Counted from the first letter of the stretch, positions 1 through 420 are shown. The stretch is DNA of 420 nucleotides from Escherichia coli (GCF_003334335.1 NZ_QOWQ01000191.1), one strand, 5' to 3'. Made by a program: numbers and translations. Notes: generated by a model not told the origin, from the sequence alone.

Positions 1-420
1 ACAACGGATTTATCAGCAACGGAAATGGCCTGGAAGCTGTGGGAGCTTATGGGGGAGGTGTATTCGAACCGCTGGACTCAGAAGAACGGGGCCGCACCTT
101 CGAAGCTCTGGATTGCCCAGATTGGCACGATGACTGAACAGCAAATCCGGCTGGTCTGCCGTCAGTGCATGGACCGCTGCCGGGCGGGTGAAACGTGGCC
201 CCCAGACCTGGCTGAGTTTGTTGCACTGATTTCGGAGAGTGGGGCAAATCCATTTGGTCTTACGGTGGATGCAGTGATGGAAGAGTACCGGCGCTGGCGC
301 AATGAATCCTGGCGATACGACGGGAGTGATAAATACCCGTGGCCACAGCCTGTGCTGTACCACATCTGCCTCGAAATGCGTACCAGAGGGATTGAGCGCC
401 AGATGACGCAGGGTGAGTTA
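1..420 (+). CDS. P: Partial CDS (both ends outside the window) for a lambda P-family phage replication protein, the DnaB helicase loader; corresponds roughly to lambda P residues 38-174
   Basis: Frame 1 (codons starting at 1, 4, 7 ...) reads through all 140 codons with no stop: TTDLSATEMAWKLWELMGEVYSNRWTQKNGAAPSKLWIAQIGTMTEQQIRLVCRQCMDRCRAGETWPPDLAEFVALISESGANPFGLTVDAVMEEYRRWRNESWRYDGSDKYPWPQPVLYHICLEMRTRGIERQMTQGEL. Frames 2 and 3 both hit stops (tga near 131-135). Against lambda P as I recall it, the blocks match in order with conserved spacing: TMTEQQ vs TTMEQV; PPDLAEFVAL vs PSPGQFVAW; then 36 vs 37 residues to D-KYPW vs ESYPW; then PQPVLYHICLEMRTRGIERQMTQGEL vs KSNAHYWLVTNLYQNMRANALTDAEL (26 vs 26 residues). 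Comparison is from memory, not a database search. Confidence 0.85.

Follow-up and report, generated by a model that had tools for sequence, protein, structure and literature searches.

The replication genes of phage lambda are the closest described counterpart of the locus considered here. Lambda P (PF06992, PHROG 109; PDB 9oa1, 8v9t, 8v9s) is a protein of 233 aa composed of a disordered arm (domain I, residues 1-29/40), domains II (~30-119) and III (~120-192), and domain IV (193-233) (PMC12661323). Its gene lies directly 3' of the initiator gene O in the early operon, and ori-lambda is located inside O. Two further systems are relevant for comparison: E. coli DnaT, with its C-terminal DNA-binding domain, and the ydaU-ydaV pair of the Rac prophage, which is represented by Escherichia phage Rac-SA53 (KU052037).

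Here we analyse a 420-nt stretch of E. coli DNA, hereafter called the window, which comes from a Rac-like lambdoid prophage, where it is part of the early replication operon. Frame 1 of its + strand belongs to the gene of a helicase loader that falls into the lambda P family, both by sequence and by predicted fold. The full-length loader (220 aa) is ~19% identical to lambda P in a multiple alignment and has in common with it the succession of a disordered N-terminal arm, a pair of helical domains and an arm at the C-terminus, as well as the position of its gene directly 3' of a phage initiator gene in an early operon. Unlike lambda P, it is paired with a non-O initiator: lambda O is a member of phrog_277, whereas the initiator here belongs to phrog_1408/3992 and carries a DnaT-like domain (PF17948). 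In both loci the initiator gene precedes the loader gene, and just as ori-lambda resides inside O, putative iterons (GTCACGNC) reside inside the initiator gene here. The lambda O and P genes overlap by 4 nt, whereas the first ~70 codons of the loader are placed inside the initiator gene.

Similarity to E. coli DnaT is confined to a single domain, the C-terminal DNA-binding domain, which is matched by initiator residues 194-268 (PF17948; NF002770 positions 82-155); the rest of the initiator is unrelated to DnaT. The likeness to the Rac prophage extends over both genes, with 90% DNA identity, the same gene order and the same overlap of open frames, which measures 212 nt in Rac-SA53. The Rac-SA53 record names the initiator 'primosomal protein I' and the loader, given as a short protein of 153 aa, 'ydaV'; these gene names appear to be positional.

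Long out-of-frame overlaps between phage genes are known from phiX174 D/E and lambda Rz/Rz1. As in those pairs, a constrained segment of one protein is encoded over a segment of its partner that is disordered or variable. Unlike those pairs, the overlap described here is terminal rather than nested, the 3' end of one gene lying over the 5' end of the next, and it joins two proteins of one pathway. A literature search outside the subscription journals found no description of this overlap, which is a weak negative. The gene family, the locus and the exact loader sequence in RefSeq are already known; what is mildly new is confined to the conservation of the long overlap and the truncation in the annotation. 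Very probably, one joint explanation would cover our observations, namely that a 220-aa lambda P homologue starts inside the initiator gene and overlaps it out of frame for ~209 nt, in two segments.

A Rac-like replication locus

The window is 100% identical to the corresponding sequence in four E. coli genomes, among them JE86-ST05 (NZ_AP022815.1, 1197642-1198061), which provided our reference locus (L002; the window is L002 5001-5420). Sites at least 80% identical to the window are present in 1,246 of 5,426 complete E. coli genomes, and phage Rac-SA53 and PPompW prophages match it at 90% identity. The neighbouring genes in JE86-ST05 encode an exonuclease, DicB, a repressor-like protein, a transcriptional regulator and a YdaT family protein, followed by initiator and loader. 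The operon order, repressor / YdaS-Cro-like / YdaT / initiator / loader, recurs in loci from E. coli, Enterobacter, Klebsiella, Symbiopectobacterium and Salmonella. RefSeq annotates two + strand genes that enter the window in JE86-ST05, one for a DnaT-like ssDNA-binding domain-containing protein (L002 4100-5137) and one for a replication protein P (L002 5130-5591).

Apart from these genes, an Rfam scan of the window returned no RNA family at E<=1, and a promoter scan of L002 4700-5700 found no candidate. A single terminator-like site in that interval is located at the end of the loader gene and is within chance expectation. A region with 90.2% identity, the same as in E. coli Rac-SA53, is also found in Actinobacillus phage vB_Apl-pPE4 (PP818812.1, 9461-9878), whose recorded host, Actinobacillus pleuropneumoniae, is unexpected for an E. 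coli Rac-like module.

Frame 1 encodes a lambda P-type helicase loader

Frame 1 of the + strand is open over all 140 codons of the window and contains zero stops; under a uniform-codon model, the chance of 140 stop-free codons is about (61/64)^140 = 0.001. A preliminary description of the window had regarded this frame as the true gene and its translation as similar to lambda P. Profile searches agree with that view: the 140-aa translation matches Phage_lambda_P (PF06992) at E=2.2e-9 over residues 33-139, and PHROG 109, 'P-like helicase loader', at E=1.1e-41, with residues 4-140 on profile positions 32-173 of 236. The description had also anticipated a gene of roughly 230 aa extending beyond the window. 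In JE86-ST05, extension into the flanks yields an ORF of 220 aa (L002 4929-5591), close to the anticipated length and to the 233 aa of lambda P. Its ATG lies 72 nt before the first base of the window and its end 171 nt past the last, at window coordinate 591. Window positions 1-420 hold codons 25-164 of these 220. What had been overlooked is the end of a second + strand gene, that of the initiator, in frame 3.

The full ORF matches PF06992 at E=1.9e-15 (residues 58-187 on model positions 31-161 of 162) and PHROG 109 at E=2.4e-62 (residues 14-220 on profile positions 18-236 of 236). Because lambda P itself covers positions 1-233 of PHROG 109, the numbering of the profile nearly coincides with that of lambda P. 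Even the N-terminal 67 residues of the loader, taken alone, match this profile (E=4.6e-4, residues 10-64 on positions 14-73). A sequence search of the PDB aligned the ORF with the lambda P chains of 8v9t, query residue 69 corresponding to lambda P residue 81; a pairwise hhalign comparison with lambda P alone was limited to aligned residues 85-194. NCBIfam contains no model that matches either the window translation or the full ORF.

Structure prediction leads to the same family. An AlphaFold model of the loader, built on 60 sequences, has a mean pLDDT of 75.6; it shows residues 1-26 as disordered and, at ~28-107, a helical domain that spans Met68. When this model was compared with the PDB by Foldseek, the best six matches were all lambda P. 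DnaB-bound lambda P chains (9oa1_Y/Z/V) were aligned over 207-223 columns at E=2e-5 to 7e-5, and lambda P domain III (8v9s) superimposed on the model with a TM-score of 0.92 and an rmsd of 1.0. Whole-chain TM-scores are low (0.42-0.52), as expected because the domains are flexibly linked. By homology, the loader would bind host DnaB and deliver the helicase to the phage origin through contact with the initiator.

The initiator gene and its disordered tail

The initiator is a protein of 345 aa (RefSeq CDS, L002 4100-5137). Its 3' end occupies window positions 1-137 in + frame 3, comprising the last two bases of codon 301, codons 302-345 and a TGA at 135-137. Frame 3 is open from the left edge of the window up to this TGA, and an ORF search with a 20-aa threshold reports its part at 39-137. 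The DnaT DNA-binding domain is recognised by PF17948 at E=1.7e-16 (residues 201-266). Against the DnaT equivalog model of NCBIfam, NF002770, the initiator scores 93.4 bits over positions 82-155 of 179 and does not reach the cut-off of 201; it is a DnaT-domain protein, not DnaT. Its PHROG families, phrog_1408/3992, are labelled 'replication initiation protein' and 'primosomal protein' and are distinct from the lambda O family.

Among relatives, the N-terminal and central domains of the initiator are mosaic and unrelated to one another, being DUF1376-type in some and of other types elsewhere, with some of them non-DnaT (loci L001, L002 and L083-L086; alignment A3). The last ~70-80 residues, which are the part that overlaps the loader, are shared and travel with the loader gene. 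This tail alone matches phrog_3992, 'primosomal protein', at E=2.6e-5; it is acidic and predicted to be disordered, with AlphaFold pLDDT below 50.

A further PHROG profile, phrog_15931 (482 positions), is matched by the initiator at positions 1-347 and by the loader at 279-482, and each of the two frames of the overlap matches it too. This cluster is apparently chimeric, bridging two different proteins.

The overlap is conserved among diverged prophages

The initiator and loader ORFs overlap by 209 nt, the loader being in the +1 frame relative to the initiator. To gauge conservation, we grouped relatives into clusters at less than 85% loader amino acid identity, which gave 26 lineages, the most distant of them 40% identical to the query. 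Across these clusters the overlap measures 191-224 nt in 25 of the 26 and 113 nt in the remaining one, and the frame relation is always the same. Synonymous positions have turned over to a large extent, given that fourfold-degenerate sites show differences in 62% of pairwise comparisons.

How often would the initiator frame stay open by chance? Under a null model that fixes the loader protein, draws synonymous codons from the usage in its non-overlapping part and is solved exactly by dynamic programming, the probability of an open initiator frame is 0.007-0.18 per lineage for the whole overlap and 0.08-0.38 for its second half alone; p-values multiplied across lineages would overstate significance, because the 26 lineages are related. 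Codon choice tells the same story at single sites. At positions where a T-ending loader codon would create a stop in the initiator frame, such codons account for 0 of 134 in the overlap segment versus 169 of 697 (24%) in the non-overlapping part (Fisher p=5e-15). Past the overlap, the initiator frame contains 2-11 stops in the ~150 downstream codons, and control windows of 33 codons are open in 0-15 of the 26 lineages, compared with 25 of 26 for the initiator frame within the overlap. The converse test, which takes the initiator protein as given and asks whether loader codons 1-35 stay free of stops, carries little information (p=0.14-1.0 per lineage). Judged by these comparisons, the overlap of ~200 nt is conserved far more often than chance allows.

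The one exception is a Symbiopectobacterium prophage (L085 2286-3113), in which an early initiator stop shortens the overlap to 113 nt and removes the distal tail. This points to a distal tail that can be dispensed with in this lineage, or else to a prophage in decay.

Constraint passes from the initiator frame to the loader frame

Diversity per codon position divides the overlap into two parts. Over loader codons 2-27, pairwise differences at positions 1/2/3 are 0.44/0.63/0.50, a periodicity that follows the initiator frame. Over codons 36-69 they are 0.31/0.25/0.52, which is the pattern of the non-overlapping part (codons 70-220; 0.29/0.24/0.59) and hence that of the loader frame. The switch from initiator-frame to loader-frame constraint falls at loader codons 25-35, window positions 1-33 on the + strand. 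Differences at fourfold-degenerate sites of the loader amount to 0.45 in codons 1-35 versus 0.62 both in codons 36-69 and downstream.

The two proteins mirror this division. Upstream of the window, a conserved initiator helix, SRAVQEIRAAREQWER, is encoded over the variable, disordered arm of the loader; at window 34-137, a conserved loader motif is encoded over the initiator tail. In this second half, amino acid identity of the tail is 0.36, inside the range of control windows (0.26-0.43), and tail motifs such as DCPDW can be read from the sequence as a consequence of the loader codons for LWIAQIG. Since tail identity lies in the control range and synonymous sites of the loader are unconstrained here, selection on the tail is evident as stop avoidance only. 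For the part of the overlap inside the window, the sequence comparison thus shows selection against truncation of the initiator and not on the sequence of its tail.

We envision a scenario whereby translation of the loader would begin at a conserved Shine-Dalgarno sequence and ATG, 72 nt upstream of the window and within the initiator gene, while the initiator, in the -1 frame with respect to the loader, would be translated for ~70 codons past the loader start, up to the stop at window 135-137. In the first half of the overlap (the upstream part and window 1 to ~30), the initiator frame is the constrained one, encoding the conserved helix, and the loader frame would encode an N-terminal arm, variable and disordered, that corresponds to domain I of lambda P. 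Over the second half (window ~34-137), constraint rests on the loader frame, which would encode the first half of the folded domain II, and the initiator would end in an acidic, disordered tail whose sequence is for the most part dictated by the loader codons but whose frame is kept free of stops. A contact between initiator and loader, and any function of the tail, are inferences.

Where does the loader start?

The position of the upstream start is documented by 138 distinct sequences from 179 collected loci. In all 138, a methionine occupies the column homologous to this start, whose ATG lies 72 nt before the window; GGAGGT, GAGGT or GGGGGT precedes this ATG by 5-9 nt in nearly all listed start contexts. 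In the initiator frame the ATG reads NAT-Gxx, encoding His, Asn, Tyr or Asp followed by Ala, Val or Glu, and these amino acids are variable. The T of the ATG is a synonymous position in the initiator frame, yet it is never replaced by C and is T in all 26 cluster representatives. Because this synonymous T never becomes C, it constitutes direct evidence of selection on the start ATG itself. Relatives of 212-223 aa are found in Enterobacter, Klebsiella, Salmonella and Symbiopectobacterium (93-100% query coverage, 45-89% identity), and full-length 221-aa forms of close relatives are present in GenBank.

Conceivably, the loader could start further downstream, and of the possible sites the ATG at window 49-51 (Met41) fares best. 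Translation from there would give a protein of 180 aa, leave 40 upstream codons untranslated and reduce the overlap to ~90 nt. Met41 is conserved in 137 of 138 relatives and has a GGAG 3 nt upstream; many RefSeq relatives, in Salmonella, Citrobacter and Klebsiella, are annotated as 'replication protein P' with 180-181 aa; and loader codons 2-27 are without loader-frame constraint. Nevertheless, we consider a start at Met41 unlikely. Upstream of it, W35 and W38 are conserved in 135 and 138 of the 138 relatives, respectively, and the alignment with PHROG 109 begins at residue 14. The upstream ATG with its Shine-Dalgarno sequence is found in 138 of 138 relatives, with its synonymous T held in 26 of 26 representatives. 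Moreover, an N-terminal segment of low constraint is not at odds with the family, given that in lambda P, too, domain I is a disordered arm (PMC12661323). Met41 might instead serve as a secondary internal start producing a shorter isoform, which is conceivable because the residue is nearly invariant and has GGAG close upstream.

The start chosen by RefSeq lies still further downstream and is, in our estimation, very unlikely. The RefSeq 'replication protein P', WP_000139447.1, has 153 aa and begins with the ATG at window 130-132 on the + strand, which is Met68 of the 220-aa ORF. On this model, frame 1 would be untranslated upstream, and loader and initiator would overlap by 8 nt around the initiator stop (ATGACTGA). 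The model draws support from its annotation on the exact sequence and on the top-listed matches among 1,250 E. coli records, from the junction ATGnnTGA, a common coupling arrangement, and from the precedent of lambda O/P with an overlap of just 4 nt. It is at variance with the conservation upstream of Met68. Eight residues that are invariant in the alignment of relatives down to 45% identity (W38, W49, K52, N53, G54, P57, W61 and A63) all precede Met68, as does the motif AWxLWExMGEIYSxRWTxKNGAAPSxLWIAQIG, and loader-frame periodicity is already present over codons 36-69. Met68 itself is replaced by Leu in 24 of 138 distinct relatives, and inspection of the sequence before the ATG at window 130 revealed no Shine-Dalgarno sequence. 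Finally, Met68 corresponds to position 74 of PHROG 109 and lambda P, inside the predicted helical domain at ~28-107, and the 153-aa protein would thus begin in the middle of predicted domain II. From the domain limits of lambda P it follows that the RefSeq product would consist of a protein without domain I and roughly half of domain II. Met68 is most likely an internal methionine, and by the alignment of its relatives the RefSeq loader start is 67 codons too late.

Truncation by 67 residues is common to every annotated match that was inspected among the 1,250 matching E. coli records. The reverse choice is found in GenBank assemblies from Enterobacter, Klebsiella and Salmonella (L083, L084 and L086), where the full-length loader is called and no initiator gene is annotated in an upstream gap of ~850 nt that contains an ORF of 339-393 aa. 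Gene callers seem to keep just one partner of the overlapping pair.

Frameshifting, fusion and antisense frames

Could initiator and loader be products of a single reading event? A programmed +1 ribosomal frameshift, or an ancestral single gene, would yield an initiator-loader fusion, with the overlap as the frameshift window. Such a fusion would fit the fact that phrog_15931, with its 482 positions, is matched by both proteins, and a few fused proteins do exist in databases, namely P0106 (333 aa, DUF1376 plus P) and P0032 (291 aa). Each of these is a singleton. P0106 results from an in-frame deletion that joins the middle of a DUF1376 initiator to loader residue ~103, and in P0032 a downstream DUF1627 protein is joined to the C-terminal part of the loader; probably, both are products of deletion or rearrangement in decaying prophages, and we dropped the idea on these grounds. 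The loader frame, moreover, has a conserved Shine-Dalgarno sequence and ATG of its own, and an unsystematic look for a shift site found none. We therefore regard frameshifting or fusion as highly improbable.

The opposite strand accounts for what an ORF search reports. As the preliminary description had pointed out, the ORF track of the window lists minus-strand ORFs only: the default cut-off of 60 aa leaves 13-363 (116 aa), 47-253 (68 aa) and 162-365 (67 aa), and frame 1 is missed for want of a stop inside the window, the tool omitting ORFs that run off the ends of the source. All three were judged spurious in that description, and we concur, because they lack family matches and their open runs are not conserved. 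A PHROG search of the minus-strand ORFs gave no family at E<=1 except for one weak match at E=0.067. Opposite a coding region of balanced GC content, antisense frames are expected to stay open over long stretches. That one or more of these ORFs (116, 68 or 67 aa, or 199 aa when extended) would be a real antisense gene is the least credible possibility of all, since, although long and provided with start codons, they have no family match and no RefSeq annotation, and their open runs vary between 37 and 136 codons among the 26 diverged lineages. The extended frame of 199 aa (L002 5162-5761, covering window 162-420) lies opposite the loader and is without significant family match.

Implications

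The preferred reading, a full-length loader that starts inside the initiator gene, has practical consequences. Structural or functional work based on the 153-aa RefSeq model would use a broken protein. An ORF track bounded by stops will miss a gene that spans a short window and may, in addition, hide a second, overlapping gene on the + strand. As an example of dual coding in a dsDNA prophage the overlap is tidy, and it would make the co-evolution of initiator and loader testable; the picture of lambda-type replication is left unchanged by it.

By analogy with lambda O/P, the initiator tail and the N-terminal region of the loader are the segments that would be expected to touch. We tentatively put forward the idea that the ~70-codon overlap, kept across Enterobacterales prophages, might physically link the initiator tail to the N-terminal region of the loader. 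A corollary, if this were true, is that whenever DNA-binding domains of the initiator were swapped in mosaic fashion, a matched interface between initiator and loader would come along.

Repeats within the initiator gene

Two clusters of GTCACG(A/G)C repeats with 10-bp spacing are located in the initiator gene (L002 4228-4290 and 4509-4560), ~450-770 nt upstream of the window. In the 10.4 kb of L002 there are six exact matches to GTCACGNC, compared with 0.97 expected, and all six are inside these clusters. By analogy with ori-lambda, the repeats look like putative origin iterons within the initiator gene.
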